From contig JAXLQJ010000007.1 in assembly GCA_046331705.1 (NCBI GenBank), forward strand, positions 62,001-126,000: a stretch of 64,000 nt of DNA. The letters are read 5' to 3'. The translations under genes were made by a program, and so were the position numbers. A model generated the notes under the pieces. The model ran no database searches. It was given only the letters and a program-made list of their open reading frames with translations, and was not told where the DNA came from. This DNA is from a bacterium. Lineage in GTDB: Bacteria > JADJOY01. This document shows positions 33,620 to 57,537 of the stretch, piece by piece; the first letter of the stretch is position 1; every line of letters begins with the position of its first letter.

Positions 33620-34690
33620 ATGATTGCTGCGGGCGCTCGGCTGCTTCGATCCGCCTATCTCGATTGGCCAGCGCTCGCGTCCGCGGCGCTCGCCACGCGC
33701 GACGGCTTCCGGCGCGTCCTCGATCTGGCGCGAGCACGGGGCTCACTCACGCGCGCCGGCTGGCGCGGCGATGCCCGCTGCGTGCGCTGCGGTCTCGCCG
33801 CACGCGTGCCGGGCGTCTCCCTCGACCTCCTCGGCCGTTGCCGCGAATGCGTCGCCGCGCCCGTTCCCGGCCTGCCGCCAGCGATCCTCGGCGCCCTACC
33901 CGAGATCTCCCTGGCGCGCATCGCTGAGACCGCCGCGCGCCGCTGCCTCGTCCCGCGCGCCGACGGCGGCGTGGATGCCGTCGTGGCGCTCTCGGGCGGC
34001 AAGGACAGCTTGCTCGCCTTGATCGGTGCCCGCGCGCTCGACCTGCGGGTGGTGGCCGTCACGCTCGACAACGGCTTCTTGCTCGCGCCCGCGCTGGCGA
34101 ACGCCCGCGCCTGGTGCGAGCGGCTCGGCGTGCCGCTGGCGATCCGCCGGGAGCCGATGCACGACGTCGTGCGCGCGGCGCTGCGCCGCAAGCGCTTGGT
34201 GCCGTGGCCGTGCATCGCTTGCTTCGACCGCTTGAGCCGGGTGCTGCTCGCCGAGGCGGCGCGGGTCGATGCACGCACGATCCTCACGGGGCTGCGCTAT
34301 CGCTGGCCGAGCGGAAGCGCGCTGGCGCCGGCCAGCGAGGCATTCGCGCCCTACGCCCCACCGCGCGAAGCCGCGCGCGTCGCCGTGCTCAACCTTCCCG
34401 CGGCCCTCGGGCTCACCGAGACCGAGGAACGTGCGCTGCTCGCCCGGCTCGGCTGGCACGACCCTGGGCTGGAGGGTCATTCGACCAACTGCCTGCTGCC
34501 CGCGCACTTCGAGCATCTGCACCGGACGCGAGTGGGACATCCGCACGAATCGGTCCGATTCGTCGCGCGCGAGGCACGCGAAGGCGTCATCACGGCCGCG
34601 CTCGCCGTCGCGCGCATGGCCGGCGCGCCGCCCCGGGACGAGCACCGCGACGAGCTGGCGCGACGCCTCGCCGAGGATGGTCGCGAGTGA
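33620..34690 (+). CDS. PP-loop ATP pyrophosphatase, N-acetyl-sugar amidotransferase (WbuX/WbpG)-like, Cys-rich
   Basis: CVRC..CREC, SGGKDS, TLDNGF, PCIAC and HSTNC motifs. Confidence 0.7.
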   Translation: MIAAGARLLRSAYLDWPALASAALATRDGFRRVLDLARARGSLTRAGWRGDARCVRCGLAARVPGVSLDLLGRCRECVAAPVPGLPPAILGALPEISLARIAETAARRCLVPRADGGVDAVVALSGGKDSLLALIGARALDLRVVAVTLDNGFLLAPALANARAWCERLGVPLAIRREPMHDVVRAALRRKRLVPWPCIACFDRLSRVLLAEAARVDARTILTGLRYRWPSGSALAPASEAFAPYAPPREAARVAVLNLPAALGLTETEERALLARLGWHDPGLEGHSTNCLLPAHFEHLHRTRVGHPHESVRFVAREAREGVITAALAVARMAGAPPRDEHRDELARRLAEDGRE

Positions 34691-35742
34691 TCCGGGTCGC
34701 GCTCCTCGACCCGACGCTGCACGCGGCGTTCGACGCGTACGTCGCGGATCATCCGCACGCGTCGGTGTTCCACACCCGCGCCTGGCTCGACAACGCGTGT
34801 GCGGCGCTCGCCGCCGAGCCGCGCACGTTCGTGGCGTGCGACGGTGACGCCGTCGTGGGAGCGCTGCCGGCGGCCCGCCTCGCGAGCCCCCTCGGCGGGG
34901 CGCGGCTCGTCTCGATCCCCTTCTGCCGATACCTGCCGGTGCTCGCGAGCGACGCCGACACCGTGTCCGCGCTCGTCGAGACGGCCCGGCGCGATGCTCG
35001 TGCCCTCGGCTGTCGCTACCTCGAGCTCCGTTCCGGTCCGCTCGCGTCGGCGCCCGCGGGTGCCGTGTCACGCCACCACTTCGACAACTGGTCGATCGAC
35101 CTCGCCGGCGGCGAGGCCGCGTGCTGGGCGCGCCTGCACCCCCGCAGCACGCGGCGCGCGATCCGCTTCGCCGAGCGCCACGGTGTCGAGGTGCGCCGCG
35201 TCTCGACTCCCGAGGGCTACCGGATCCTGACGGGCCTGGACGCGATGACCCGCCGTCGACAGGGGGTGCCGCGCCACCCCGCCGCGTTCCTGCGCGGGCT
35301 CGGCGAGCGCTTCGAGCCCTCCGACCAGGCGCTGCTCTTGATCGCGGTTCGCGACGGGGAAGCCGTCGCGGCCGAGCTGGCGCTGCGCCATCGCTCGACC
35401 TGGCACGGCATCCTCGGCGTGGACGGGCGCGCCGGCACCACGACCTGGCGAGCCAGCACCTTGTTGCTCTGGGAAGCGATTCGCCATGCGATCCGCACCG
35501 GGGCCGAGCGCTTCGATCTCGGTCCCGCGCATCGCGGCAACGCCGGGCTCACCGCGTTCAAGCGTCGTTTCGGCGCGCTGGCGACCCCCGCCGACACGCT
35601 CACGTTCGCGCTCGCCGGTCGTGCCCGCGACGCAGCCAGGATCGATGCGCCGTGGATTCGCGCCGCGCGCTGGGCGCTCCGCACGCTTCCTCCGCCGCTG
35701 CACGGCGCCGTGTCGCCGCTGCTCGTCGCCGAGGTGGCATGA
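34687..35742 (+). CDS. FemAB-like GNAT acyl/aminoacyl transferase
   Basis: ASVFHTRAW, LVSIPF, YLELR, LLWEAI..FDLG and GLTAFKRRFGA motifs. GTGA and ATGA overlaps. Confidence 0.8.
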   Translation: MIRVALLDPTLHAAFDAYVADHPHASVFHTRAWLDNACAALAAEPRTFVACDGDAVVGALPAARLASPLGGARLVSIPFCRYLPVLASDADTVSALVETARRDARALGCRYLELRSGPLASAPAGAVSRHHFDNWSIDLAGGEAACWARLHPRSTRRAIRFAERHGVEVRRVSTPEGYRILTGLDAMTRRRQGVPRHPAAFLRGLGERFEPSDQALLLIAVRDGEAVAAELALRHRSTWHGILGVDGRAGTTTWRASTLLLWEAIRHAIRTGAERFDLGPAHRGNAGLTAFKRRFGALATPADTLTFALAGRARDAARIDAPWIRAARWALRTLPPPLHGAVSPLLVAEVA

Positions 35743-36806
35743 TCCCGCCGATCGTCGTGTGGCGCGCCTTTCGCGTGTGGCGCGCGTGGCGGCGCGGACG
35801 GCCGAAGCCACTCTCGGTGACGTATTTCGTGAACGGCGCGTGCAACCTGCGTTGCCGCGGCTGCTTCTTCTTCGAGCACCCACCCGAATCGCTGGACGCC
35901 GATGCCGAGCTCGGCACGCACGAGGCGCTCGCGCTCGTGGACGATCTCGCGCGGCTCGGCGTACCGTTCCTCGAGCTGGTCGGCGGCGAGCCCTTCCTGC
36001 GCCGCGACCTGCTCGAGCTGGCGCGCCATGCCCGAAAGCGCGGGTTGTGGTGCGGCGTCACGACCAACGGGACACGCCTCGACGCGGCGGTCGCCGCCGA
36101 GGCGCGTCGGACGTTTCGCACGGTCTTCGTCTCCCTCGACGGCTTCGAGGCGGCGCACGACGTCGTGCGCGGCGTCGGCGGCTACGCCCGAGCGCTCGCG
36201 GGGCTCGATCACCTGCTCGCGGCGCCGGGACGAGCGCTGGTGGGCGTGAGCACGATCCTGACGCCCGAGAACCTCGCGAGCCTGCCGGATTTCGCGGCGT
36301 TTCTGCGGGCGCGAGGCGTCGGCCAGTGGGTCCTGTCCTCGGCGCTGGCGCCTGCGCCCGCCGTGGATCCCGCGGCAGCGGCGCCCGTGCTCGCGCGCCT
36401 CGCACGGCTGCGCCGGGAGGACCCCGAGTTCTTCCCGCAAGAAGAGCGGTTCTTCGCGGCGCTGCTCGGCCTGCAACGCGGCGAGGGTCGATACGGCTGT
36501 CACGTCGATCAGCTCCTGCACGTCTCGGTGACGCCTTCGGGGGAGACGTCGGCGTGCTGTCTCTGGCCCGTCCCCCTTGGCCCTGCCTCGCAGGGCGAGC
36601 TTGCAGCGACGCTCGCGCGGGCCGCGCGCGAGCCGAGCCGATTCGAGCCCGTGGATCGCTGTAGCGGCTGCGCGCGGCACGATTACGCGTACACGATGGC
36701 GCTCTTCCGGCGCCCGCTGCCGCGACGGGTGGGCGAAGGTCTGCGGCTCGCGCTCGGCCGCGGCCTCGCGTCGCCGTCAGCCGGCGCGGACGGCGAGCGG
36801 CGCTGA
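35739..36806 (+). CDS. Radical SAM protein with C-terminal SPASM/twitch-type Cys
   Basis: CNLRCRGC, GGEP, TTNG and VSLDG motifs. Auxiliary Cys YGC..ACC..CSGC. Confidence 0.88.
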   Translation: MIPPIVVWRAFRVWRAWRRGRPKPLSVTYFVNGACNLRCRGCFFFEHPPESLDADAELGTHEALALVDDLARLGVPFLELVGGEPFLRRDLLELARHARKRGLWCGVTTNGTRLDAAVAAEARRTFRTVFVSLDGFEAAHDVVRGVGGYARALAGLDHLLAAPGRALVGVSTILTPENLASLPDFAAFLRARGVGQWVLSSALAPAPAVDPAAAAPVLARLARLRREDPEFFPQEERFFAALLGLQRGEGRYGCHVDQLLHVSVTPSGETSACCLWPVPLGPASQGELAATLARAAREPSRFEPVDRCSGCARHDYAYTMALFRRPLPRRVGEGLRLALGRGLASPSAGADGERR

Positions 36807-38327
36807 GGCCGTCACCGCCCGGCCGCGACGGTTGCGCGCGCTCGCGCGGCCCACCAACGCCCGCGCGCGAAAGCGCAGTCCCACGCCGACGGTCATGAGG
36901 AAATCCGCGGCCGCGGCGCGATCCACGAAGAACGGGTAGCTCGCGAGGTGGGTCAGCGCGGCCAGCTTCCCCCACGGCCGGCGCATCACGCGCGCGAGCC
37001 ACGGCCGCAGCCAGCTCGGCGCGGCCACGTACGCCGGCAGCATCCGCGACAGCGTGAACGCGGTCCCGCCGTACGGTTGGCGAAGCGGCGAGCGACCGTG
37101 GTAGCTGCCGCGGCCCTCCTCGATCGCCAGCACGTCCGCGGGCGCGAGCAACCCGCGTTCGACGCAGCTGCGTAGGAGTGGCGTGCCGGGCAAGGGAAAG
37201 AACACGAAGCTCTTGACCGAGTCGGCGCCGGTCGCCGCCGCGAGCTCGACCGTGGACCACATGTCCGCCGGCGTCTCGTCCGGGAACCCGAAGATGACGT
37301 CGACGTAGAGATGGATCCCCGCGGCGCGGATCTTTCGCGCCGCCTCCAGCACCCGGGCGGTGGGCATGGGGCGGGCGCGGATGGATTCGTTGAGCGGCTC
37401 GCTGCCGACCTCGAGCCCCATCGCCAGCTCGCTGCAGCCCGCCAGCCGAAGCGCGCGGAGCATGCGATCCGACACCAGCAGCGGATACGCGTTGCCCCAG
37501 AACGGCAGGCCGACGCGCTCGCGGTAGATGGGCGCGAAGGCCTCGATCCAGCGCTCGTCGAGCGCGAACAGCTCGTCGACGAATGCGACGCTTCGCGGCC
37601 GGTGGCGCGCCTTCGCCTCCGCGAGCTCGGCGATCACGCTGGCGACCGAGCGGCGGCGCAGGAACTTGCCGTCGTCGCGCTCGCGATGGAGGTCCTGAAG
37701 CGCGGTGTTGGTGCAGTACGTACAGCGAAACGGGCAGCCGCGCAGGGTGTTGCACGCCAGCGCGCTTTCCGCGACGCCCTCGCGACGGAAGAGCTCCCGA
37801 TCCGGAAACGGCAGCGCATCGAGGTCCTGGCGCAGCGGCCGCGGCGGTCCGGCCACGATCTCCCCTCCCGCCTTCCGCGTCCAGAGCCCGGGGATGGTCT
37901 CGGTGGAGCCACCGCGTTCGAGGGCGCGCGCCAGCTCGCGGATCACGTCCTCGCCGTCGCCGACACAGACGTAGTCCGCCCAGCCCGCCTCGAGCGTGCG
38001 CCGCGGCAGCATCGTCGCGTGGACGCCGCCCGCGACCACCGGCACGCCGAGCCGCTCGCGCACCGCGCGCGCGACCTCCGCCAAGGTCGGCACCAGGTTG
38101 GTCCACACCGACACCGCCACCAGCTCCGGCTGGAACGCGGCGATCCGCGTCAGGATCTCCGCGCGCGTCGGTCCGAGGAACCCGAGCGCCCCGAGATCGG
38201 CGTACGGGTGGTGGCGGAAGCCGGGATCGAAGACGAGCCCGACCTCGTGGCCATCGGCTCGCAGCGCCGCCGCGAGGTACTCGATCCCGATCGACTCGGC
38301 GACCTGATGAAAGAAGAGGACGCGCAC
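36777..38327 (-). CDS. B12-binding domain radical SAM enzyme
   Basis: GIEYLAA, GGVHAT, GDGE, LDALPFPDR and RGCPFRCTYC motifs. 3' end overlaps the convergent gene by 30 bp. Confidence 0.92.
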   Translation of the reverse strand: MRVLFFHQVAESIGIEYLAAALRADGHEVGLVFDPGFRHHPYADLGALGFLGPTRAEILTRIAAFQPELVAVSVWTNLVPTLAEVARAVRERLGVPVVAGGVHATMLPRRTLEAGWADYVCVGDGEDVIRELARALERGGSTETIPGLWTRKAGGEIVAGPPRPLRQDLDALPFPDRELFRREGVAESALACNTLRGCPFRCTYCTNTALQDLHRERDDGKFLRRRSVASVIAELAEAKARHRPRSVAFVDELFALDERWIEAFAPIYRERVGLPFWGNAYPLLVSDRMLRALRLAGCSELAMGLEVGSEPLNESIRARPMPTARVLEAARKIRAAGIHLYVDVIFGFPDETPADMWSTVELAAATGADSVKSFVFFPLPGTPLLRSCVERGLLAPADVLAIEEGRGSYHGRSPLRQPYGGTAFTLSRMLPAYVAAPSWLRPWLARVMRRPWGKLAALTHLASYPFFVDRAAAADFLMTVGVGLRFRARALVGRASARNRRGRAVTASAPLAVRAG

Positions 38328-38349
38328 CGAGGCTCACCCGCGAGCGCGG

Positions 38350-38371
38350 CGCGGTCGTTGACCCGACCGCG
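38350..38371. terminator. 8-bp stem-loop downstream of the secreted-protein gene
   Basis: CGCGGTCG-ttgacc-CGACCGCG lies between co-directional genes. Confidence 0.35.
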
Positions 38372-38383
38372 GCGCGCCGGAGC

Positions 38384-39751
38384 TCAACCGGCCGGCTTGG
38401 TCAGCGGCGTCGCCGTCGGCTTGAGCGGCTTGTCGATCATCGTCAGCCAGGTCTTCTCGTCTCCCGGCTGCCAATGCTCGGGGTACATGTAGAAGAGCCG
38501 CATGTCGTAGTTCCCCTTCTCGAGTGGGAAGAGGTCGAACTTGAAGGCGACCTCGCCGATCGAGCCGGGAACGTTCTCGGGGTCGTCTTCAGTCGTGAGG
38601 TCGTCGGTGTAGGTGAGATCGGTGACCGGCGCGAGCGGCTTGGGCATCTCGACGAACCACAAGAACGTGCCCGGGGTGCCGGTGAGCAGATGCCAGTTCG
38701 GGCGCCTGGGGTCGAGGTTCTTCTCGTCCTCCGACGTCACCCCGTCGACGACGTGCCAGGGATCCTTCGCACCGGGGCTCGGTCGGTAGTACTTCATCCC
38801 CTTGCCCTGCTCGTTCAGATCCACGCTGAGCTTGAACCACGCTTCCCTGGCGATGCTCGGGAAGTCCACGGTCTGCTGGATCTTCGCCGGCGCCTGGTGG
38901 AAGTCGCGGTAATACGTCGCGAACACTTGCACCGTCGGCGAGACCTCGATGCCCATGAAGGAAAGCCGGTTCTTCACCATGCGCATCGCGCGCACCGGCC
39001 CATCGAAATAGGCCGCCACCTTACTGTCCCACTCCTCCTCGTCGAAGCTCAGGGACAGCAAGAGCTTGGTCTTGATGTACGTGCGCAGCTTGAGGCGATC
39101 AACGAAGTTCACGCCGGAGCCGCCGGCCGCCGTCGGAATGGTGATGTTCGAGAAGAAGATGTGGTCTTTCCCTGGCGTGTACTGCATCGTGTAGTGCTCG
39201 GCGGTGATGCGCTCCTGCGCCGGGTCGTAGCTCACGTAATCCGCCTTCGAGCGCGGCGCCTTGGCGTCGAACGCGAACAGGTAGACGAAGCCGCTGGTGC
39301 CATCGACCGGGTCGCTCACGGCGATCTCGGCACCGTCGCTTGCACCCTCGGGCCAGGCCGCGGCGTCGAGACGCGAGCCGGAATCGTCCGCCATGAACAC
39401 CAGCTCGTCTTGCTTGTCGAGGAGCCCGTTGCCGTCCCCCGGGTTCGCCTCCTTGCCACCGGGAAACACATACGCACCCGCGGCGGTCTTCTCGTCGACC
39501 TGGAAGGGAATCGGCGCGAGCCCCGCTGCCCCCAGCGCGAAAAGCCCGAGCTGTTCGACCTTCTTGCCCAGCAGCGTGGGTGTGATCTCCCCCGTGACGA
39601 CGACCGGATCGGGCACGCGATGGAGCGTCTTGGCGCCGCTCGGGGCCGCGTCCTGAGCGAGCGCCCGCGCCGCCAACCCCAGGCTCAGCACCGCTGCCAT
39701 CCACGCACCCGCGGCCACGCGGGCAGCACATCGCCGTCGATCTCGATTCAT
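38384..39751 (-). CDS. Secreted hypothetical protein (about 455 aa, acidic, beta-rich)
   Basis: GAGGAGG RBS. Signal peptide ending ARALA-Q. PDPVVV, PIPFQVDE and DELVFM segments. Pro/Thr-rich tail. Confidence 0.8.
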   Translation of the reverse strand: MNRDRRRCAARVAAGAWMAAVLSLGLAARALAQDAAPSGAKTLHRVPDPVVVTGEITPTLLGKKVEQLGLFALGAAGLAPIPFQVDEKTAAGAYVFPGGKEANPGDGNGLLDKQDELVFMADDSGSRLDAAAWPEGASDGAEIAVSDPVDGTSGFVYLFAFDAKAPRSKADYVSYDPAQERITAEHYTMQYTPGKDHIFFSNITIPTAAGGSGVNFVDRLKLRTYIKTKLLLSLSFDEEEWDSKVAAYFDGPVRAMRMVKNRLSFMGIEVSPTVQVFATYYRDFHQAPAKIQQTVDFPSIAREAWFKLSVDLNEQGKGMKYYRPSPGAKDPWHVVDGVTSEDEKNLDPRRPNWHLLTGTPGTFLWFVEMPKPLAPVTDLTYTDDLTTEDDPENVPGSIGEVAFKFDLFPLEKGNYDMRLFYMYPEHWQPGDEKTWLTMIDKPLKPTATPLTKPAG

Positions 39752-41586: not shown

Positions 41587-41662
41587 CCCGGCGGCGGCTC
41601 CCCAGCACCCCGCGGCGCGACGCCGGTCGTGGTCGCATGTAGGCGTCACGCCTCTCGTTTCT

Positions 41663-41692
41663 TTGACAGTGGCCAAAACGGCATGGTACCCA
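41663..41692 (+). promoter_or_regulatory. Possible sigma-70 promoter for the 41857-48830 operon
   Basis: Perfect -35 TTGACA at 41663-41668 in a locally AT-richer patch. Weak extended -10 (TGG-TACCCA). Confidence 0.4.
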
Positions 41693-41856
41693 TCTGCCAC
41701 GCTCCGATGCCGCCGCTGGTGGCTCGGGCCACCCCCCCAAACTCGCTTCGGGCCGCTGCGGCTCGGGGTCGAGGGATCGGGTAACCGGTCCTCGCGTAGC
41801 CGGCACCGCGCCCCCACGGCCCTTCGGCCCGGCGGCACGAGGAGCACGACACCCCG

Positions 41857-42984: not shown

Positions 42985-43056
42985 TCGCGCGGGCCGCGAC
43001 GAACGAGAGGCCTTGCGCACCCCCGCGAGACCGCTGATCGAGGAGCGAGGACAGGG

Positions 43057-45875: not shown

Positions 45876-45971
45876 TAGGATCCGCCGCGCGGCGGCCCGC
45901 CTCCCGACCGCGCGGCGCGGCGGCTCGCTCGCCGGCGCGTACCGGGCGCCGACGAGCCGTGCGCCCAGCGC

Positions 45972-48026: not shown

Positions 48027-48110
48027 CGCGCGCAAACGCGCGGACCCAGCCGCCGGCGCGACGCGCCGCGAATCCTGCGCGGCTCGCGACCCACCGGGAT
48101 TCCCGCGACC

Positions 48111-50333: not shown

Positions 50334-50353
50334 CCCGCTCCTCCTCGTCCTCG

Positions 50354-52006
50354 TCAATGGCCCGTGGCCCGTGCGCCGTGTGGATCCACGCGCGCCACCA
50401 TCAGCGCGAGCGGGGCCACCAGCAACAACGCCAGCGACATGAACCGGAACGCATCGAGGACGGCCAGCACGCTGGCCTGGCGTCCCACCTCGCCGGCGAT
50501 CATCGTCAACGCGCGGTCGTGCGCGATCCCCACGTTCGCGCCGTGGGGCAGCATCGCCGTGGTGAATCGGGCGAGCGCCTCGCGCGCCGGCGTGTCGAAC
50601 GGGTTCACGTGTGCCGCGAGGATCGCCTGGTGGACCTGGGCGCGCCGCGCCAGGATCGTGGTGACGATCGAGATGCCGACGCTGGCGCCCACGTTGCGCG
50701 CGAGGTTGATCAGGCTGGAGGCGCTGTTGTTCTTCCCGGGCGGCACCGTCGCGAAGGCCACCGTGTTGATCGGCACGAACAGGAACGCGAGCCCGACGCC
50801 CTGGACGACGCGATCGAACGCGACCTGGCCGAAGGTGGAATCGAGCGAGAGGTGCGTGAGACGGAAGAGCGCGTAGCTGCTCATCAGCAGACCGAACAGG
50901 ATGAGCCAGCGCGGTTGGACGCGCGTGACGAGCGTCCCCACCAGCGGCATGAGCGCCATGATCGTGAGCGCACCGCCGGTGAGCGCCATCCCGCTCTGCA
51001 TCGCCGTGTACCCCATGACCGTCTGCAGGAAGATCGGCAACAGCACCGTGCTGCCGAGCAGCGCGAAACCGAGGGCGAACATGAGCGTGAACGCGGTGCC
51101 GAAGGCGCGCGTGCCGAGCAGCCGCAGATCCACGATCGGATCGCGCTGGCGCAGCTCCCACACGATCGCCGCGGCGATCCCGAGCGCCGCGAGCACGGCG
51201 AACACGACGATGAAGCGCGACTCGAACCAGTCGTCCTCTTGTCCCTTGTCGAGGACGACTTGCAGACAGCCGAGCCCGAGCGTCACGAGACCGAGGCCGA
51301 TACCGTCGATCGGGCTGCCCCGCTTCGCCGCGCGCTCGGCGCGCTCGTGCGGCGGGTCCTCGACCACCCAGCGGCTCAAGACCAGCGAGAGGATCCCCAC
51401 CGGCACGTTCAGGTAGAACACCCAGCGCCACGAGAAGTTGTCGGTGATCCACCCGCCGAGGGTCGGGCCGAGCGCCGGCGCGCTGACCACGGCCACGCCG
51501 TAGACCGCGAAGGCCATGCCGCGTTTCGCCGGCTCGAACGTGTCGGCCAGGATCGCCTGCTCGCTCGGCTGCAGCCCGCCGCCGCCCGCCCCCTGCAGGA
51601 TGCGAAAGACGATGAGCCACCCCAGGCTCGGCGCCAGCCCGCACAGCGCCGAGCTCACGGTGAAGATCGCGACACACGTCATGTAGAAGCGCTTGCGCCC
51701 GACGAGTCGGCTCAGCCAGGCGCTGAGCGGGAGCACGATCGCGTTGGCGACCAGGTACGACGTGAGCACCCAGGTGGCTTCGTGAGTCGTCGACGAGAGA
51801 CTGCCGGCCATGTGCGGCAGCGCGACGTTGGCGATGCTGGTGTCGAGCACCTCCATGAACGTCGCGAGCGTCACCGTGAGCGCAACCACCCACGGATTGT
51901 GGGAAGGCCGCCACACCGCCGCCGGACCTGCCGTCGGGCGCGCCACCGCTGCCGGGCCATCGGCGACGAGCGGGCTGGCGTCGCCCGCAGCGGCCGCCGC
52001 GTTCAT
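50354..52006 (-). CDS. emrB: DHA2-family MFS efflux permease (EmrB/QacA)
   Basis: FMEVLDTSIANVALP, WVLTSY and GPTLGGWITDN motifs. ATGA overlap with emrA. Confidence 0.93.
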   Translation of the reverse strand: MNAAAAAGDASPLVADGPAAVARPTAGPAAVWRPSHNPWVVALTVTLATFMEVLDTSIANVALPHMAGSLSSTTHEATWVLTSYLVANAIVLPLSAWLSRLVGRKRFYMTCVAIFTVSSALCGLAPSLGWLIVFRILQGAGGGGLQPSEQAILADTFEPAKRGMAFAVYGVAVVSAPALGPTLGGWITDNFSWRWVFYLNVPVGILSLVLSRWVVEDPPHERAERAAKRGSPIDGIGLGLVTLGLGCLQVVLDKGQEDDWFESRFIVVFAVLAALGIAAAIVWELRQRDPIVDLRLLGTRAFGTAFTLMFALGFALLGSTVLLPIFLQTVMGYTAMQSGMALTGGALTIMALMPLVGTLVTRVQPRWLILFGLLMSSYALFRLTHLSLDSTFGQVAFDRVVQGVGLAFLFVPINTVAFATVPPGKNNSASSLINLARNVGASVGISIVTTILARRAQVHQAILAAHVNPFDTPAREALARFTTAMLPHGANVGIAHDRALTMIAGEVGRQASVLAVLDAFRFMSLALLLVAPLALMVARVDPHGARATGH

Positions 52007-53046
52007 CGCACCTTCACGTCCGGAACCACCGACATCCCCGGCGCCAGACCGACCAAGCTCGAGGCCGGCTCGTCGAAGCGGATCCGCACCGGCACCCGCT
52101 GGACCACCTTCACGTAGTTTCCCGTGGCGTTCTCGGGCGGCATGAGGCTGAACCGCGCCGCTGCTCCCGCTTGGATGCTCTGCACGTGCGCGGCGAGCCG
52201 GCGATCGGGAAACGCATCGGCGCGCACCTCCACCGATTGCCCCGGCCGCATGTCGGTGAGCTGGGTCTCCTTGAAGTTCGCCACCACCCAGACCTCGTCC
52301 CCGACCAGCGCCATCAAGGCCTGCCCCACCTGCACGAAGTCCCCCACCTCGACGCTCTTCATGGTGACGCGACCCGCCTTCGGCGCACGCACCTCCGTGT
52401 ACGAGAGCTGCTGCTCGGCCTGCCGAACGAGCACCGCGGCGCTCTCGACCTCGGCAGCGCGGGTGGCGACCTGGGACTCCGCGAGCGTGATCTCGGCCCG
52501 CGCGGCTTGCTCGCGGCTGCGCGCCAAGGCGGTCTCCGCCACCGTGCGCTTGGCCAACGTCTCCGCGTTGTCCAGCGCTTGGCGCGAGACCGCGCCCGCC
52601 GATACCTGCTGGTAGCGATGCAGGTCCTGGGCGGCGTTGCGTTCCTCCACCGCCGCGGCCTCCGCCGCCGCGTGGGCCTGATCCAGGGCCGCCTGCGCGA
52701 CCATCACCTGGGCGCGCGCCTGCACCAGCCGTCCCTCCGCCTCGGCGCGGGCCGCCGCGGCGCGCTCTCGTTCGTGGCGCAGGTCGGTCGACTCGAGTGC
52801 GACGAGCAGCGCCCCCGCCTCGACCCGCTGATCGGAGACCACCGCGACCGTGGCCACGCGGCCCGGAACCTGCGGCGCGACTCGCACGACCGTGCCGTCG
52901 ACGAACGCATCGTCCGTGGACTCGTAGTGGTGCGACTGCCAGGCGTAGCGGCCTCCTGCGCTCGCCGCGGCGAGGATCACGAGGGTCGGGAGGATCCAAC
53001 GCACGGGAGACCGTCGACTCGTCTGGGGGGGCTTCACCGGGTCCAT
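52003..53046 (-). CDS. emrA: HlyD/EmrA membrane fusion protein
   Basis: ESTDDAFV, ANFKETQ and PPENATGNYVKVVQRVPV motifs. Confidence 0.95.
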   Translation of the reverse strand: MDPVKPPQTSRRSPVRWILPTLVILAAASAGGRYAWQSHHYESTDDAFVDGTVVRVAPQVPGRVATVAVVSDQRVEAGALLVALESTDLRHERERAAAARAEAEGRLVQARAQVMVAQAALDQAHAAAEAAAVEERNAAQDLHRYQQVSAGAVSRQALDNAETLAKRTVAETALARSREQAARAEITLAESQVATRAAEVESAAVLVRQAEQQLSYTEVRAPKAGRVTMKSVEVGDFVQVGQALMALVGDEVWVVANFKETQLTDMRPGQSVEVRADAFPDRRLAAHVQSIQAGAAARFSLMPPENATGNYVKVVQRVPVRIRFDEPASSLVGLAPGMSVVPDVKVR

Positions 53047-53079
53047 CGTGCTCGCTCTCTCGCTCGGGGATTCCGCGAA

Positions 53080-53099
53080 ATGGTTTGGAGCCGAACTAC
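53080..53099. promoter_or_regulatory. Putative MarR operator upstream of emrA
   Basis: ATGGTTTGGAGCCGAACTAC is an imperfect palindrome, 16/20 identical to the site upstream of marR. Confidence 0.7.
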
Positions 53100-53112
53100 T
53101 TGGGCAAAAAAA

Positions 53113-53637
53113 TCAACCTGCCCCGGCGCGCGCGACGGCGTCGCGCACCTTGCCGAGCAATCGCACCAGCGCTCGTCGATCGGCCTCGCCCAGGCCGGCG
53201 ACCATCGTGGCCGTCATGCGGAAATAGTCGGGCAGCAGCCGATCGAGACAGGCCTGACCCTGCTCGGTGAGCGCCACCAGCGTCATGCGACGGTCGCCAG
53301 GATGGGCGGCGCGACGCACCAGGCGATCGCGCTCGAGCCCGTCGAGGAGCCCCGTCATCGTCGCGCGGGTCACGCCCAGCCAGTCGGCGATCTCCGAGGG
53401 CAGCGCGTTTCGCCCCTTTTCGCGCAGCAGGTACATCAGCACTCCGAAGCGCCCGGGCGCGATGTCGTGCTGCGCCAGGTAGGTCTCGATCGTCCGCGCG
53501 ACCGCGTTCCCGGTCACCACGATCGACAGGTACGCCTCGACCCCCGTGGGATCCATGGAGGAATAGCGGCGCGCGAGCGCGCGCGTGGTCTCGAAGCGCG
53601 GAAGCTCACGGAGCTGGATGCTGGATCGGTTCGCCAT
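53113..53637 (-). CDS. MarR-family transcriptional regulator
   Basis: PSEIA..VTRATMTGLLDGLE and DRR..LTEQG motifs. Confidence 0.93.
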   Translation of the reverse strand: MANRSSIQLRELPRFETTRALARRYSSMDPTGVEAYLSIVVTGNAVARTIETYLAQHDIAPGRFGVLMYLLREKGRNALPSEIADWLGVTRATMTGLLDGLERDRLVRRAAHPGDRRMTLVALTEQGQACLDRLLPDYFRMTATMVAGLGEADRRALVRLLGKVRDAVARAGAG

Positions 53638-53648
53638 CGGGAGCCGAC

Positions 53649-53677
53649 ATGGTAAGGAGGCGAACTATCTTCGCCAA
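53649..53677 (-). promoter_or_regulatory. Sigma-70 promoter of marR with an overlapping MarR operator
   Basis: Minus strand TTGGCG-N17-TACCAT. Operator ATGGTAAGGAGGCGAACTAT (53649-53668) covers the spacer and -10. Confidence 0.7.
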
Positions 53678-53809
53678 GGGCGGTCGCGGCGAGGCTGACG
53701 CCTCGGTCCGCGACCACGAGCGGCGTCCGCGCCGTGGCGCCGGATCCCGCGCACCCAGGGCATCGCCGCGGACGACCTCCGTCGCCGGCGACGCTTCACC
53801 CGGCGCCGC

Positions 53810-54922
53810 TCAGCCGCGCGCGTCAGCCGACCAGCGCCGGTAGGCCTTCACTTCCGCCCTGGTCATGTTGGTGTAGTTGGCGCTCTTGGGAATGATGCAG
53901 TCCTGGCACATCGCGAGGTCGCGGTAGCTGCCGTCGATCGCCTGCTGGCGCCACGCGGCGAGCTTCGCGTTCCGCCACCACACGTCGTGGAACGTCTCGG
54001 AGCGCAGATCGCCGAGCACGTTCACCATCTCGTTGTCGCGCGTGCAGGTGGTGACGCGCCCGTCCCAGTTCACCACCGGCGACTTGAAGAAGCCCGAGCA
54101 CGTGTGGGTGTTGGGGACGAGGATCTTGGAGCGCAGCCGCTCGACGAGGCCCCGGCGATCCTCCCCCACCAATCCCAGGCTCCTCATCAGCTCCAGATAG
54201 CGCGCGTTCGAGGCCTCCTGGTCGCGAGCGTCCAGGCAGTCGAGCTGGCGGAAGAACACGCAATTGTCGCGGTCGAAGTTGGGATGGAAGGCCGCGGCAC
54301 CGCAGTCGAGACCGCGCCGCTCGCACTCGCTGCGCCAGCGCCCCAGGAAGTCCGGCGCTTCGGCGGCGTTCGACTCGTGAACGATGAACTGGAACACCAG
54401 CTTCGGGTAGAGGGAGCGCTTCTCGGCGCGCAGCTTCACCAGCTCGCGCACGTTCGACTCGACGAGCGCGAAGTCGTTCTTTCCCTTGATGCCGACGTAG
54501 GTCTCGGGGCGCGCCGCGTCGATCGTGCAATGCCAGACCTGGAAGATGCTGTCGGTGTCGTTGGTGGCGAGCTCGCGAACGGCGGGACGCAACAAGTTCC
54601 CGTTGGTGTGGACCTCGACCTTCTTGAAGACTCGCTCGCGGGCGTTGAGCTCGAGCACGAACCGGTAGAGCTCGGCGAACTTGGGGTGCATCAGCGGCTC
54701 GCCGATCCAGAAGAGAATCAGCGTGTGGAATTGGAGCCGATGGCGCGCCATGTCCTCGAGCGCGGCATAGAACACGTCGGGGTTCAGGAACCCGCCGTCG
54801 TCGATGTGGGGATGGATGTCGTACTGCTGGATGCAGTGCTTGCACTTCAGGTTGCAGAGGTTGGTGAGCTCGAAGACGACGTAGCTCCCCTCGAAGGTCG
54901 GGACGACGCCGTTCACGCTCAT
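53810..54922 (-). CDS. Radical SAM/SPASM-twitch protein (BtrN-like), paralog of 44586-45875
   Basis: CNLKCKHC, WIGEP, VHTNG and TIDA motifs. Auxiliary Cys HTC..TTCTRD..CQDC. ATGA overlap with the upstream B12-rSAM gene. Confidence 0.9.
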   Translation of the reverse strand: MSVNGVVPTFEGSYVVFELTNLCNLKCKHCIQQYDIHPHIDDGGFLNPDVFYAALEDMARHRLQFHTLILFWIGEPLMHPKFAELYRFVLELNARERVFKKVEVHTNGNLLRPAVRELATNDTDSIFQVWHCTIDAARPETYVGIKGKNDFALVESNVRELVKLRAEKRSLYPKLVFQFIVHESNAAEAPDFLGRWRSECERRGLDCGAAAFHPNFDRDNCVFFRQLDCLDARDQEASNARYLELMRSLGLVGEDRRGLVERLRSKILVPNTHTCSGFFKSPVVNWDGRVTTCTRDNEMVNVLGDLRSETFHDVWWRNAKLAAWRQQAIDGSYRDLAMCQDCIIPKSANYTNMTRAEVKAYRRWSADARG

Positions 54923-56301
54923 GTCCGAAACGCCCATTCCATCACCCGCCACCCCGCGCTCATGCCCCGCGCGATCCCGCCGAGCCCGCGGCCGAAGCCG
55001 AGCAGCTCCAGGATCGCGCGCGGCCGCAAGTAGAAACGTAGATAGGCCTCGCGCAAGAGCCGCGCGAGCGATCGATCGTCCCAAGCCGGCCCCATCGCCG
55101 TGAGCCGCCGCGCCTCGGCGTCGAGCGGGCTCAACGCCGGGCTCTCGCGGATCCACCCCTCGCGCTCGGCCATGGCGTGCAGCGGCGTCGACTCGAAGGG
55201 CGAGAGCGTCGAGAACTGTGCGTAGGTGGGGGCGATCTCCGTGGCCAGGCGAATCGTCTCTCGGGCCTGCGCATGCGTCTGCGTCGGCAAGCCCAAGATG
55301 AAGTAGGCGAGCGTCGTCACCTCTTCCTCGCGACAGAGCTGGAACGCGCGGCGGACGTGCTCGACGCGAAACCCCTTGCGCAAGAACGCCAGCCCTTCGT
55401 CCGAGCCGTTGTCGACGCCGAACGCGAGCATCGCCAGGCCGGCACGCTTCATCAGCCGCAGCAGCTCGCGGTCCACCTGCTCGACGCGCGCCTCGGCCTT
55501 CCACCGAAAGCGCAGGCCACGGCGCAGGATCTCCTCGCAGATCGCGACCACTCGATCGCGCCGGAGCGTGAAGAGATCGTCGTAGAAGATCACGAACGGC
55601 GGCTCGTCGCCGTGGACCAGGCGCGCCAGCTCCTCGCCCACCGCGTGCGCCGAACGCGCGCGATACGGGTCGCCGTGCACGGCTTTCTCGCAGAAGATGC
55701 AGCGAAAGGGACAACCGCGTGAAGTTATCGCCGTCGCGATCCGCGCGGTTCGCCACAGCGGATAGCGATAGCCCTTCGCCGGCAGCAGATGACGGGCCGG
55801 CAGCGGCAGCGCGTCGAGATCGGCGATCGGCGCGGGTGGCGGCCCCTCCTGGTCACGCGTGACCACGCCGGCGATGCGCGCCGCCGATCCGGGGTCACCC
55901 GCGGCAACGCTCGCGACCAGCGCCGCGAACGAGCGCTCGCCTTCACCGCGCACCACGAACGAGGCCTCGGGAATCTCGTCGAAGATCCGCGCGCCGCGCA
56001 CGGTGGCATGCGGGCCGCCGATCACGACCGGCACGCCGAGCGGCTCGAGCACGCGGGCGGCGCGCACCGTGTCCTCGAACACCGGGGTCAGCCCGCCCAA
56101 GCCGATCAGCTCGGGCGCGAAGCGGCGCGCGCGAGCGAGCAAGCGCTCCCCCTCGAGGCGCTCGACGCGCGCGTCGAGCAAGCCCACGTCGTGCCCCTGA
56201 GCCTCGAGGCTTCCCGCCAGGTAGAGCAGACCGAGCGGCGGGACGCTCACGCCGCTTTCCGGGCGACGACGGCGGGGCGGCTGAACCAGAAGAACGCGCA
56301 T
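54919..56301 (-). CDS. B12-binding domain radical SAM enzyme
   Basis: PPLGLLYLA, GGPHAT, GEGE, DLDALPLPAR and TSRGCPFRCIFC motifs. Confidence 0.92.
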   Translation of the reverse strand: MRVLLVQPPRRRRPESGVSVPPLGLLYLAGSLEAQGHDVGLLDARVERLEGERLLARARRFAPELIGLGGLTPVFEDTVRAARVLEPLGVPVVIGGPHATVRGARIFDEIPEASFVVRGEGERSFAALVASVAAGDPGSAARIAGVVTRDQEGPPPAPIADLDALPLPARHLLPAKGYRYPLWRTARIATAITSRGCPFRCIFCEKAVHGDPYRARSAHAVGEELARLVHGDEPPFVIFYDDLFTLRRDRVVAICEEILRRGLRFRWKAEARVEQVDRELLRLMKRAGLAMLAFGVDNGSDEGLAFLRKGFRVEHVRRAFQLCREEEVTTLAYFILGLPTQTHAQARETIRLATEIAPTYAQFSTLSPFESTPLHAMAEREGWIRESPALSPLDAEARRLTAMGPAWDDRSLARLLREAYLRFYLRPRAILELLGFGRGLGGIARGMSAGWRVMEWAFRT

Positions 56302-56439
56302 CGAGCGACGAACGAGGTCGGCGGGAAACCGGGAGTGGCGGCGGCGCGTTCCGAGGGGAAAACGAGTGTCCCCTTCCCACCCCCACGCGTCAATGGTCGG
56401 GCGCGGGCGCTCGGCGAACACTCCCTGGCCGCGGCGTGC

Positions 56440-57537
56440 TCAGTCCGTCCACGCGATGTCGTGGAGGGTGAGCCCGTCGCGCCGGATCCAGCCGTAGATC
56501 GCGCGCGGCGAGATCCTTCGCTCGCGCCGGAGGCGCCAGCGCGCCGCCAGCATCCGCGGCACGCCGATCCAACCGTCGGCGAGGCTCCGCAGCGCGGCGC
56601 CGATCAGCCCCGCGCCGCGGGCGCGCTCCTGGAAGCGCGCCGAGGCGCCGCGACCGCGCACCACGCCCCACGCCTGCACGAGATGGCGTACGGCGGTGAG
56701 CGCCGGATTGAGCGCGACCAAGCCGAGCGGAAAATGCTTCGCGACCAGCCACACGCGGTTGCGTTCGACGTGATAGGCCTTGAAGGGCGAATAGGCGCCG
56801 GCCGTGACCGAGCCCACGTGCCACGCGAGCGCATCGGGCACGTACCGGCAACGATAGCCAGCGAGCCGGGCGCGGATGCCGAGCTCGGTGTCCTCGCCGT
56901 ACGCGAAGAAGCGTTCCTCGAGGCCGCCGCAGCCGAGCAACAGCTCGCGGCGATAGAGCGCCGCGGCACCGCTCGGGAAGAGCACGTCACGGCGCGTGTC
57001 GTATTGAGCGCGATCGATCTCGAGCCGGCCCCGGCCCCGGTTGAGGCCGTCGGCCGCGAGCAGATGGCCGGTGGTGTCGAGTCGCCCTGGAGAGCCCGCC
57101 AGCAGCACCTTTCCCGCGCACATCCCCACGCGCGGGTCGCGCTCCGCCTCGGCGATCAACGCGCCAGCCCAATCCGGGTGCGCCCAGGCGTCGTCGTTGA
57201 GCAACAGCACGTAGCGCCCGCGCGCGGCGCGAAGCCCCAGGTTCACGCCTGCCGCGAACCCCGCGTCGTGGCCCGCGACGATCACGGTGACCGCGGCGAG
57301 ATCCGCCGCCCATGCCGCTTCGAGGCGCGCGTCGCGCGCCCGAGCGAGCACCAGCAGGATCTCGAGCTCGACTCCTCGCTGCGCGCGCAGCGAGGCGAGC
57401 GTGACCCGCAGCGGATCCGGCAGGTCGCGGGACACGACGATCGCCGACGCGAGCGGCGAGACCTCGAGCGCGTCCTGCGGCGCGCGAGCGGGATGCGGAG
57501 GCGGAGCCGGCTCGTGCGCGCGCGCCGCGCGGCTCAC
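56440..57537 (-). CDS. Glycosyltransferase family 2 (rhamnosyltransferase/WsfF-like)
   Basis: GFAAGVNLG, LLNDDA, SGAAALYR, FFAYGEDTELG and ERNR motifs. GTG start overlaps the glnD stop (start uncertain). Confidence 0.88.
   Translation of the reverse strand: MSRAARAHEPAPPPHPARAPQDALEVSPLASAIVVSRDLPDPLRVTLASLRAQRGVELEILLVLARARDARLEAAWAADLAAVTVIVAGHDAGFAAGVNLGLRAARGRYVLLLNDDAWAHPDWAGALIAEAERDPRVGMCAGKVLLAGSPGRLDTTGHLLAADGLNRGRGRLEIDRAQYDTRRDVLFPSGAAALYRRELLLGCGGLEERFFAYGEDTELGIRARLAGYRCRYVPDALAWHVGSVTAGAYSPFKAYHVERNRVWLVAKHFPLGLVALNPALTAVRHLVQAWGVVRGRGASARFQERARGAGLIGAALRSLADGWIGVPRMLAARWRLRRERRISPRAIYGWIRRDGLTLHDIAWTD

Follow-up and report, generated by a model that had tools for sequence, protein, structure and literature searches.

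What does a bacterium make with eight radical S-adenosylmethionine (SAM) enzymes that are encoded among glycosyltransferases within about 24 kb? This question is raised by an island at positions 33620–57537 of a 64,000-nucleotide stretch of DNA (contig JAXLQJ010000007.1 of assembly GCA_046331705.1, positions 62,001 to 126,000), hereafter called the window. The source is an uncultured wastewater bacterium, whose genome (G000; 8.17 Mb, 118 contigs, 95.7% complete) belongs to a GTDB phylum of six genomes in two genera. The island was compared with its counterparts in G002 and G003, from the same genus, and in G005, from the other, so that both known genera of the phylum are represented.

In the best reading of these comparisons, the island would be an envelope-glycoconjugate tailoring system built around a periplasmic glycosylation module of the Gtr or Arn kind. 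The radical SAM enzymes (rSAMs) are proposed to tailor a lipid-linked or nucleotide sugar, and a Gtr-like module, comprising a family 2 glycosyltransferase (GT2) and a membrane glycosyltransferase of the GT-C fold, would deliver it to an envelope glycan; we place slightly more belief than doubt in this proposal. It rests on gene content, family placement, synteny, gene fusions, and co-localization. On the comparative evidence, what appears to be new is the combination of sugar-tailoring rSAMs with a GT2/GT-C module of the three-component type. To our knowledge, sugar-tailoring rSAMs are found almost only in antibiotic pathways (BtrN, AprD4, BlsE, DesII, GenK) and among the lipid head-group enzymes HpnJ and Cds. 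In the literature searched, no description of rSAMs as auxiliary enzymes of three-component GT-C systems was found, and the earlier statement that no described pathway has such a composition holds for the same literature; subscription literature may hold more.

Organization of the Island

Because the GC content of the window is about 70%, genes were called by third-position GC, and the calls were checked with Pfam and NCBIfam. Eighteen genes were called in the island, 14 of which lie outside an embedded efflux operon. The rSAMs are named rA to rH, and the values in the list are Pfam E-values unless stated otherwise.

33620..34690, + strand: amidotransferase-like PP-loop ATPase that carries a Cys4 ribbon at its N-terminus (SGGKDS motif, CxxC...CxxC)
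34687..35742, + strand: FemAB-like/Acetyltransf_6 protein (Acetyltransf_6 5.6e-16, FemAB 3.4e-7)
35739..36806, + strand: rA, radical SAM protein with a twitch-like C-terminal Cys pattern (Radical_SAM 2.7e-18 and Fer4_12)
36777..38327, - strand: rB, B12-binding (1.6e-19) and Radical_SAM (1.6e-18)
38384..39751, - strand: secreted protein, with a signal-peptide-like N-terminus from Met28
39952..41586 (start possibly 39841), + strand: rC, B12-binding (8.8e-15) and Radical_SAM (3.2e-20)
41634..41693, + strand: conserved intergenic box (TTGACA) upstream of rD, which may serve as promoter region for the operon from rD to GT2
41857..42984, + strand: rD, core gene, Radical_SAM (1.6e-21) and SPASM (2.4e-4)
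43057..44589, + strand: rE, core gene, B12-binding (2.5e-12) and Radical_SAM (1.5e-13)
44586..45875, + strand: rF, core gene, BtrN-like twitch radical SAM protein (Radical_SAM and SPASM)
45972..48026, + strand: membrane glycosyltransferase of the GT-C fold, its C-terminal domain (about 250 aa) rich in beta structure
48111..48830, + strand: GT2, predicted polyprenyl-phosphate sugar synthase of the DPM1/GtrB/ArnC type (Glycos_transf_2 9.5e-25)
48867..53637, - strand: MarR-EmrA-EmrB-NodT efflux operon (scores of 469 bits for efflux_EmrB and 375 bits for outer_NodT exceed the NCBIfam cut-offs)
53810..54937, - strand: rG, BtrN-like twitch radical SAM protein (Radical_SAM and SPASM)
54919..56421, - strand: rH, AprD4-like B12-rSAM, B12-binding (9.2e-22) and Radical_SAM (5.2e-19)
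56440..57462, - strand: EpsD-like GT2 glycosyltransferase, first gene of the GT2-rH-rG unit

The island is divided into five transcription units on alternating strands. The PP-loop, FemAB-like, and rA genes form a plus-strand unit with a 4-nt overlap at both junctions, and rB forms a minus-strand unit with the secreted-protein gene. A plus-strand run then comprises rC, a 271-bp gap, rD, rE, rF (with a 4-nt rE/rF overlap), the GT-C gene, and the DPM1-like GT2 gene, and a further minus-strand unit consists of the EpsD-like GT2 gene, rH, and rG, with a 19-nt overlap between the latter two. Within the plus-strand run, rD, rE, rF, GT-C, and GT2 constitute a core operon of five genes and 7 kb (41857–48830). 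Across G000, G002, G003, and G005, the 60-bp box is the sole invariant block of the rC-rD gap. A consensus scan returned no sigma-70-like promoters, the rC-rD box included, and three terminator-like sites versus 5.0 expected from shuffles; these counts are uninformative.

The first-pass annotation, a reading of the letters of the window, had named eight CX3CX2C proteins in about 24 kb, four with B12-binding N-termini and four with SPASM or twitch cysteines. These counts were recovered: the eight rSAM genes (35.7–56.4 kb) each encode one such motif, rB, rC, rE, and rH match both Pfam B12-binding (PF02310) and Radical_SAM (PF04055) above the gathering scores, and Pfam SPASM is found in rD, rF, and rG, rA being assigned to this type by its Cys pattern only. 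The partner genes it had listed were likewise confirmed: the GT-C transferase, the DPM1-like synthase, and the GT2 by the fold model, PDB match, and Pfam matches given below, and the PP-loop amidotransferase-like enzyme, the FemAB-like protein, and the secreted protein by motif, Pfam, and signal-peptide evidence, respectively. In the B12-type rSAMs the CX3CX2C motif is located at residues 198, 199, 247, and 237. In the other four it starts at residue 35 (rA), 46 (rD), 69 (rF), or 28 (rG) and is followed by a common downstream pattern, C-X17/18-C ... C-X2/3-C.

Glycosyltransferases and Partner Genes

The core operon ends with the pair of genes around which the proposed system would be built. 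Among solved structures, the DPM1-like GT2 best matches the P. furiosus Dol-P-Man synthase (5mlz, 1.5e-22), followed by ArnC (1.7e-4), a homology that suggests synthesis of a polyprenyl-phosphate sugar. The protein consists of the catalytic domain only, lacks any hydrophobic segment, and scores below the cut-offs of the NCBIfam models AglJ and PpgS. Located 85 bp upstream, the GT-C gene encodes nine hydrophobic segments in residues 21–385, with an Asp56 in the first loop region that is invariant in eight homologs. Its Pfam PMT_2 match (3.7e-4) is below cut-off, and no PDB sequence match was obtained. For a structural model of the protein (predicted local distance difference test, pLDDT, 67), all 28 Foldseek matches at E<=1e-3 are nonetheless GT-C enzymes (EmbA/B/C, AglB, ArnT, STT3, ALG9/12, and AftA), with template-modeling (TM) scores of up to 0.39/0.50. 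Because these matches scatter over Emb, AglB/STT3, ArnT, ALG, and Aft enzymes at TM <= 0.5, no GT-C subfamily can be assigned. Seven homologs were found among 5.8 billion proteins, and the sequence evolves fast, with 58–71% identity in the relatives, as would be expected of an acceptor-specific transferase.

The second glycosyltransferase of family 2, at the far end of the island, matches Glyco_tranf_2_3 (2.5e-18), Glycos_transf_2 (2.3e-15), and, below cut-off, EPS_EpsD (48 bits), and is 69–77% identical in relatives. As for the remaining partners, the PP-loop protein has weak NCBIfam matches to LarE and to the N-acetyl sugar amidotransferase WbuX (31.8 bits; cut-off 203), and its orthologs in G003 and G005 are 49–67% identical. 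The FemAB-like protein scores 115 bits with the NCBIfam model for PEP-CTERM-associated FemAB proteins, under the cut-off of 260. The secreted protein, which has seven paralogs in the genome, has no Pfam match at E<=1; its Atlas model suggests, as a lead only, a beta-sandwich like those of DUF4861, PcRGLX rhamnogalacturonan-lyase-like, and GH38 C-terminal clusters.

Radical SAM Enzymes and Their Nearest Relatives

For five of the eight rSAMs (rA, rD, rF, rG, and rH), the nearest solved relative acts on a sugar, a cyclitol, or a nucleoside sugar, and for two more (rC and rE) it is a cobalamin-dependent C-methylase of the TokK/CysS type. One of these placements concerns rF and rG, which are paralogs (29% identity, BLASTP 4e-48) and combine the CX3CX2C motif with a single four-Cys auxiliary-cluster motif in a shortened SPASM, or twitch, domain. 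In rF, the first motif corresponds to C69/73/76, and C328, C346, C390, and C393 are invariant in 18 members of the family. A profile of these 18 sequences (the F/G family) retrieved BtrN (4m7t) at 9.5e-27 as the best of 37 PDB matches, with the tetraether synthase GDGT-MAS next at 3.5e-14, and the alignment with BtrN spans the core and the twitch domain, including the Cys motif. As a single sequence, rF has no PDB match. Its model (pLDDT 82.5) resembles SPASM and twitch enzymes generically: SuiB, SkfB, and CteB lead the Foldseek ranking, BtrN is seventh, and anSME, DesII, and BlsE are also matched. These matches do not discriminate between peptide and sugar enzymes.

Among the other rSAMs, rH has AprD4 as its best PDB match (6fd2, 6.1e-25). 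rD matches BlsE (3.5e-17), SkfB, and DesII (1.8e-8), and rA, which is 28% identical to rD, also has BlsE as its best match (7vob, 2.6e-14). Pfam detects no SPASM domain in rA, but the Cys pattern C-X18-CC-X33-C-X2-C is nevertheless present (Cys254, 273, 274, 308, and 311). Among the B12-type enzymes, rC matches TokK (3.5e-13), CysS, and OxsB; rE matches 9ccb, TokK, and CysS; and rB, which is 79% identical in G003 and G005, matches AprD4 (1.1e-9, marginal) and TokK (3.5e-9). Because the four B12-rSAMs are mutually only 25–31% identical and each has a closer paralog on another contig, the island was assembled from different subfamilies rather than by local duplication, which can be ruled out as their origin.

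Could these enzymes simply be housekeeping proteins? None of the eight reached an NCBIfam cut-off, with HpnJ, HpnR, BchE, NirJ, AhbC/D, and the RiPP maturases (RiPP, a ribosomally made peptide that is modified after translation) all included, and membership in the characterized rSAM families is thereby ruled out. rH scored 198.4 bits with BchE (TIGR02026; cut-off 481.35), 161.8 with HpnJ (577.6), 129.2 with HpnR (650), 113 with the AprD4 model NF033070 (500), and 151 with TIGR04072, a B12-rSAM of ladderane-type lipids. The BchE scores of the other B12-rSAMs were lower still (rC 115.7, rE 99.9, rB 90.5). rE scored 180.1 bits with the RiPP C-methyltransferase model TIGR03975 (cut-off 281.85) and 157 with ApyD (750). 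On the SPASM side, rA scored 102.8 with NirJ (515), 51.2 with HpnH (225), and 97.5 with StsB (625), its alignments to the heme family (NirJ/Ahb) spanning the N-terminal core only; rD scored 95.6 with AhbD (500); rG scored 86 with the tungsten-cofactor maturase (380); and the best score of rF was 55 (400). Equivalog cut-offs for NirJ, AhbC, and AhbD are in the range of 500–650. Furthermore, squalene-hopene cyclase (PF13243) had no match in G000, while control genomes matched as expected, and a link to hopanoids can thus be ruled out.

Conservation and Density in the Lineage

All 14 non-efflux genes occur in the same order in G003. In G002, the contig starts inside the secreted-protein gene, and the remaining 10 of 10 genes are in order. 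G005 carries 10 genes, from the PP-loop gene through GT-C, on one contig and four (rH-rG-GT2-GT-C) on another, again in the same order. The conserved neighborhoods that the first-pass annotation had proposed to look for in related genomes are therefore present in both genera. The identities to G002, G003, and G005, with two housekeeping proteins for calibration, are as follows.

rE: 98, 94, and 94%
rD: 95, 91, and 88%
rF: 94, 92, and 86%
rG: 93, 88, and 84% (G005 value from locus L097)
DPM1-like GT2: 88, 87, and 85%
GlnD (calibration): 91, 84, and 77–79%
IscS (calibration): 87, 78, and 76%

rE is the most conserved gene of the island and is present in all six genomes of the phylum. With 84–98% identity, rD, rE, rF, and rG exceed both calibration proteins. 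Since rA (69–70% identity in relatives), the PP-loop protein, and GT-C evolve faster, the constrained core is made up of rD-rE-rF, rG, and the DPM1-like GT2. Orthologs of rF are 87–95% identical in five of five genomes of the family and are absent from 35 genomes sampled across the rest of the domain, where two weak matches were seen.

The efflux operon, which the first-pass annotation did not mention, splits the island in G000 and G003. In G002 it has been deleted, leaving a C-terminal piece of NodT beside an N-terminal piece of MarR (L019:10557–11095), and in G005 its place between rG and GT2 is taken by a gene for a secreted protein of about 410 residues with Cys-rich repeats (L097:2700–4400). 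Because only remnants persist in G002 and a different gene occurs in G005, the operon can be ruled out as a member of the pathway and is a lineage-specific insert rather than a component of the system.

The island belongs to a genome that is unusually rich in such enzymes. With 6143 genes called and the families closed in two rounds of phmmer, 117 rSAMs were counted in G000 (88 of the B12 class and 29 of the SPASM type), distributed over 68 clusters or singletons; a search with rH alone gave 73 matches. In a first-pass search of the phylum, 68–86 rSAM candidates were seen in each of the six genomes. With eight rSAMs in 24 kb, the island is the genome maximum, compared with five in the next best windows of this size and 0.34 expected, and the clustering of rSAMs exceeds chance.

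The core was also found in environmental data. For a 7.1-kb core, half or more of the sampled words were present in 16 DNA runs from nine studies (one possibly the source), with the run labels activated sludge, sludge, wastewater, anaerobic digester, and plain metagenome. Contigs from three metatranscriptome runs of two studies match pieces of 150–270 nt at 98–100% identity, located in the secreted-protein gene, the rC-rD gap, rD, rE, rF, and rH; the uncovered stretches are uninformative. Since DNA carry-over is possible, these matches are a weak hint of transcription.

Association With Sugar Genes Elsewhere

Relatives of the rSAMs also occur with sugar genes in other genomes. With the F/G alignment as query, one genome from each species was scanned, which yielded 75 loci, 68 of them outside the phylum. 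In one of these (L082, titled Omnitrophota), a full-length rF-like rSAM (35% identity, E 9e-71) forms the N-terminal half of a protein of 810 residues, in which it is fused to a family 4 glycosyltransferase (GT4); the gene belongs to a Wzt/Wzy_C/GT2/GT4 cluster, and a B12-rSAM is encoded two genes upstream. The best match of this fusion in G000 is rF (226 bits, versus 97 for rG), and that of the B12-rSAM among the G000 gene calls is rE (147 bits, versus 109 for the next). Therefore, the E-F pair has been kept across phyla in a polysaccharide context.

Fusions were surveyed more broadly in the F/G family, for which an exhaustive profile search returned 11,777 cluster representatives at E<=1e-30. 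The scan covered the 39 forms of at least 524 residues among the 150 best representatives. The partners were GT4 in four, a class-III aminotransferase in two, a sulfotransferase in two (one also with Methyltransf_24), a GDSL domain in one, and a B12-rSAM module in three, and most of the remaining long forms are tandem rSAM-SPASM modules. None of the 39 carries a peptide-recognition, protease, or other peptide-handling domain. A word-indexed search for longer forms of rF gave one tandem rSAM-SPASM protein; the fusions surfaced only in the exhaustive profile search. Some proteins, of up to 1927 residues, string together two to four rSAM-SPASM modules in tandem, and in part of them the chain also includes a B12-rSAM module (P0033, P0039, P0045, P0053, P0015, and others).

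Similar arrangements recur within G000 itself. Contig C13 encodes a 781-residue fusion of GT4 with an rSAM-SPASM module (L102:17332–19674), beside which lie genes for MetK, SAH hydrolase, WbqC, a B12-rSAM, a GT4, and two further rSAM-SPASM proteins. On contig C39, an island at about 44–66 kb (L099-L100) holds two B12-rSAMs, three further rSAMs, an EryCIII-like GT1, three GT4 genes, a GT2 gene followed by DUF2304, a rhamnosidase-like hydrolase, and a metallo-beta-lactamase-fold protein, and ends at a tyrosine recombinase gene. Genome-wide, 31 of the 117 rSAMs lie within five genes of a GT2 or GT4 gene, compared with 11.7 +- 4.3 expected, and none of 2000 rotations reached 31. Likewise, a B12-type rSAM is found no more than five genes away from 19 of the 29 SPASM-type rSAMs (3.2 expected). 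Both counts include the island itself, and neighboring genes are not independent.

Outside the phylum, F-like and G-like genes typically occur together in an F/G module (L028-L098), and each of the two has a further SPASM rSAM as its neighbor. Homologs of rG with 34–44% identity occur in about 40 loci of metagenome-assembled genomes titled Myxococcota, Deltaproteobacteria, or proteobacteria, and the relationship was confirmed as a reciprocal best match for the one that was checked (L056). Among the 68 outside loci, the neighbors include a MopE/FG-GAP secreted protein in 19, a DegT aminotransferase in 16, an ABC ATPase in 16, a prepilin peptidase in 11, and an ABC-2 permease in eight. DegT neighbors would fit sugar chemistry, in parallel to BtrN with its aminotransferase. 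The large secreted protein of this module is MopE/FG-GAP/Ig-like, and in L028 about seven rSAM/SPASM genes follow one another.

A second scan, of metagenomes with the rE alignment, gave 79 loci, and the best G000 match was rE in 47. In one of these (L150), the rE-like gene is found amid NeuB, two methyltransferases, a GT4, and a sugar nucleotidyltransferase. Across L107-L151, contigs of 24–40% GC carry rE-like B12-rSAMs of 670–714 residues in runs of five or six rSAM genes, with neighbors that mostly match no Pfam family or match intein, SET, dCMP deaminase, or Hsp20; such contigs look like large viruses or phages and, L150 apart, did not inform on what the island does.

Proposed Pathway

A route consistent with the above would begin at the cytoplasmic face, where the DPM1-like GT2, judged by its homology, would transfer a sugar from a nucleotide donor to polyprenyl phosphate. 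On this lipid carrier, or still at the nucleotide stage, the sugar would be edited by the rSAMs through hydrogen abstraction by a 5'-deoxyadenosyl radical. BtrN-like rF and rG may oxidize a secondary alcohol to a ketone; rD and rA, which resemble BlsE and DesII, may catalyze a decarboxylation-, deamination-, or epimerization-type step; rC and rE, of class B, may methylate an unactivated carbon via methylcobalamin; and AprD4-like rH may remove a hydroxyl group. A putative flippase, outside the identified island genes, would then turn the edited lipid-linked sugar over, and GT-C would transfer it to a periplasmic acceptor, whether glycan, lipid, or protein, which the beta-rich C-terminal domain may hold. 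As an accessory unit, the PP-loop and FemAB-like proteins together with rA could amidate or aminoacylate a sugar carboxylate or amine. The unit of rB and the secreted beta-sandwich protein and that of GT2, rH, and rG would be further accessories.

A bolder version of this proposal is possible, if doubtful. In it, all eight rSAMs would serve as a modular toolkit that rewrites a single polyprenyl-phosphate-borne sugar by oxidation (rF/rG), C-methylation (rC/rE), deoxygenation (rH), and decarboxylation or rearrangement (rA/rD) into a novel branched, deoxy, or carbocyclic sugar, which a private GT-C would place on the surface. The roughly 117 rSAMs of the genome and islands of the Omnitrophota type would then reflect a widespread, oxygen-independent radical diversification of surface glycans. 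If, as in the main proposal, rSAMs edit the donors used for envelope glycosylation, the chemical space of envelope glycans would be larger than glycobiology assumes, extending to C-methylated, deoxy, keto/amino, and ring-contracted sugars made without oxygen, and the presence of around a hundred B12/SPASM rSAM genes in some uncultured lineages would begin to be explained. The core operon is small, strongly conserved, and matched in parts by short contigs from RNA libraries, and thus offers a tractable target for heterologous reconstitution.

Several observations weigh against assigning the island to envelope-glycan tailoring. The functional assignments rest on 14–35% identity to characterized enzymes, the best NCBIfam match of rE is a RiPP C-methyltransferase subfamily, and the rF model places three peptide maturases ahead of BtrN. 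Among the island genes, Pfam and NCBIfam recognize no flippase of the GtrA, MATE, or Wzx type and no genes for sugar-nucleotide synthesis or for acceptor-glycan or polymer assembly; there is no unassigned membrane open reading frame (ORF) of at least 90 aa in the island, and a flippase could be encoded elsewhere. The five units are unequally conserved, with low values for rA, the PP-loop protein, and GT-C, and need not share a single product. Beyond the island, 68 of the 88 B12-class rSAMs of G000 are not near a GT2 or GT4 gene. The common Myxococcota-type F/G module has no recognizable glycosyltransferase within 10 kb, and queries with the glycosyltransferases and B12-rSAMs of the island were matched in one of the 68 outside F/G loci (L082) at E<=1e-8. 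The rSAMs that neighbor the F-like and G-like genes of L056 find their best matches on C13 and C39 of G000 rather than in rD or rA, and the modules therefore reshuffle. Finally, the 47 rE-like metagenome loci are mostly of low GC with virus-like neighbors, and GT4 was present in one of the three that were scanned with Pfam (L150).

Alternative Explanations

The alternating strands of the five units raise the alternative that three to five independent cassettes, with separate and possibly glycan-related substrates, are juxtaposed in an rSAM-overloaded genome. Other features agree with this: an unrelated efflux operon sits mid-island in one genus, conservation differs strongly between units, the B12-rSAMs are distant from one another with closer paralogs elsewhere, the L056 neighbors match C13 and C39 genes rather than rD or rA, and the genome holds 68 separate rSAM clusters or singletons. 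We nevertheless consider it unlikely, given a 14-gene order shared by two genera despite variable flanks and a variable efflux insert, a density of eight rSAMs per 24 kb against 0.34 expected and five in the next best windows, and the genome-wide pairing of SPASM- with B12-type rSAMs (19 of 29 versus 3.2). Less probable again is a lipid target, in which the rSAMs would modify either a chain of the acyl, isoprenoid, or polyprenyl kind or the head group of a glycolipid, while GT2 and GT-C would only add the head group. Such a target is suggested by the scores of rH with BchE, HpnJ, and TIGR04072 (198, 162, and 151 bits), by the tetraether synthase as second PDB match of the F/G profile (3.5e-14), and by the order of GT2 followed by a B12-rSAM, which resembles HpnI-HpnJ, HpnI being the glycosyltransferase. 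Moreover, known lipid-modifying rSAMs include both B12 and SPASM-like types (PMC13459092). Yet no NCBIfam cut-off of a lipid rSAM was reached, no squalene-hopene cyclase is matched in the 95.7%-complete genome, Pfam and NCBIfam recognize no lipid-synthesis gene among the island genes, the F/G profile matches no other solved protein nearly as well as BtrN, and the fusion partners of this family are GT4, aminotransferases, and sulfotransferases rather than lipid enzymes. Remodeling of a head group, as by HpnJ and Cds, would in any case be a special case of the envelope-glycan proposal.

Two further alternatives would place the product outside glycan assembly. That the nearest solved relatives BtrN, AprD4, BlsE, and DesII all come from antibiotic pathways, and that the islands of G000 and G003 enclose a MarR-regulated tripartite efflux pump, with pump genes also adjoining in L024 and L026, could point to a diffusible aminoglycoside-like pseudo-oligosaccharide or glycoside exported by EmrAB-NodT under MarR control. 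Such a small-molecule cluster is very unlikely, because the pump is dispensable, having been lost to remnants (G002) or replaced (G005) while the rSAM and glycosyltransferase genes stay, and because GT-C, together with a synthase of polyprenyl-phosphate sugars, implies that a sugar is handed over from a lipid carrier in the periplasm, outside the cytoplasm. Aminoglycoside pathways do not involve such a transfer, and neither a cyclitol synthase nor an aminotransferase is present among the island genes. The least probable of the readings is that the rSAMs mature a RiPP that the glycosyltransferases then glycosylate. The best NCBIfam matches of rE (TIGR03975 at 180 bits, and ApyD) and the Foldseek ranking of rF (SuiB, SkfB, CteB) lean this way; SPASM enzymes are often peptide maturases, and rA and rD also match StsB and the mycofactocin maturase. 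No family cut-off was reached by any of these matches, however. The only gap above 200 bp in the rSAM operons, between rC and rD (41587–41856), contains no ORF conserved in the four genomes; a 51-aa ORF at 41629–41784 was considered as a precursor peptide and rejected, as it is not conserved in G002, G003, or G005, and the other gaps are 57–181 bp. No PqqD or RiPP recognition element (RRE) was matched at E<=1e-3, and because CX3CX2C is located at residues 28–69 in the four SPASM-type rSAMs, there is no room for an N-terminal recognition domain. Neither a leader peptidase nor a peptide exporter is present, and a peptide-handling domain is fused to none of the 39 long F/G forms. The statement of the first-pass annotation that no precursor peptide or RRE is visible thus stands.

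The view that the island builds a modified envelope glycan, glycoprotein, or glycolipid, which was also that of the first-pass annotation, is supported by the comparative evidence; a single pathway need not include all eight rSAMs. It stands because the rSAMs fall outside the housekeeping families and co-occur with glycosyltransferases elsewhere. Both points had been singled out in that annotation as possible grounds for its rejection: the scores for HpnJ, HpnR, BchE, NirJ, and Ahb all lie below cut-off, and co-occurrence is seen in the synteny, the E-F pair of L082, the GT4 fusions, and the 31 of 117 rSAMs near GT2 or GT4 genes (11.7 +- 4.3 expected).

Comparison With Known Systems

A close parallel is offered by the three-component systems GtrA/GtrB/GtrC, ArnC/ArnT, and the polyprenyl-phosphoribose synthase, MATE, and GT136 proteins of Citrobacter youngae, which share with the island a GT2 synthase beside a fast-evolving GT-C with a C-terminal extracytoplasmic domain. 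The island differs in lacking a flippase gene, in having a GT-C of no recognized family (PMT_2 below cut-off, no PDB sequence match, seven homologs), and in having up to eight rSAMs as auxiliaries instead of epimerases or deformylases. In the Citrobacter system, auxiliary epimerases diversify the added pentofuranose, which establishes for epimerases the principle of auxiliary enzymes acting on the donor sugar (PMC11127046).

Among individual enzymes, BtrN, the 2-deoxy-scyllo-inosamine dehydrogenase of butirosin synthesis, which works with the aminotransferase BtrS, resembles the F/G family in a profile match twelve orders of magnitude better than that to the next solved protein, in the aligned Cys motif, and in the aminotransferases that are fused to or adjoin F/G relatives. 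By contrast, rF and rG are 100–160 residues longer, the single rF sequence has no PDB match, and the two occur with glycosyltransferase genes in an envelope-type context, with no aminotransferase in the island. AprD4, the apramycin 1,2-diol dehydratase (6fd2), is the best solved relative of rH and shares its layout, in which the rSAM core comes after an N-terminal B12-like domain; however, the island has no AprD3-like reductase, and rH obtains higher NCBIfam scores for BchE and HpnJ than for AprD4. TokK and CysS are the best solved relatives of rC and rE and share their B12-binding and rSAM architecture, but the similarity is low (E 1e-7 to 1e-13) and their substrates are not carrier-linked sugars. 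GenK and Fom3 are also class B cobalamin-dependent rSAM C-methyltransferases.

In the HpnI-HpnK-HpnJ system of the hopanoid cyclitol ether head group, a glycosyltransferase is followed by a B12-type rSAM, an order that the GT2 and rH genes resemble. The differences are that rH scores under the HpnJ cut-off, that the genome has no squalene-hopene cyclase match, and that the host is bacterial. HpnJ and the calditol synthase Cds are proposed to remodel a sugar that is already on a membrane lipid (PMC13459092).

Flanking Genes and Other Features of the Window

Housekeeping genes flank the island on both sides. GlnD, PtsP, and RapZ are encoded downstream, and an aminopeptidase gene and IscR-IscA-IscS are found upstream. 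The Fe-S assembly genes IscR-IscA-IscS (30238–32235, - strand) lie 1.4 kb upstream, with the one aminopeptidase gene between, and on contig C46 an Rrf2-SufBCDS operon directly adjoins a run of five rSAMs (L101:2462–8039). Both Fe-S assembly loci seen therefore adjoin rSAM clusters, which could be due to chance or to a co-regulated supply of clusters.

Within the island, the GC content falls to 0.66–0.68 at 42000–46000 and 54000–56000, where rD, rE, rF, rG, and rH are encoded, compared with 0.70–0.74 nearby. The same stretches have the highest third-position GC (0.96 in rD, 0.92 in rE), a combination that fits a constrained amino-acid composition rather than recent transfer.

Three other loci in the window are unrelated to the island: two large, divergently encoded proteins with weak matches to multi-haem cytochromes c7/c554 (12714–16669), a SbmA/BacA-like ABC transporter (22027–23784), and a homolog of the D-component of 2-hydroxyglutaryl-CoA dehydratase (26194–27435).

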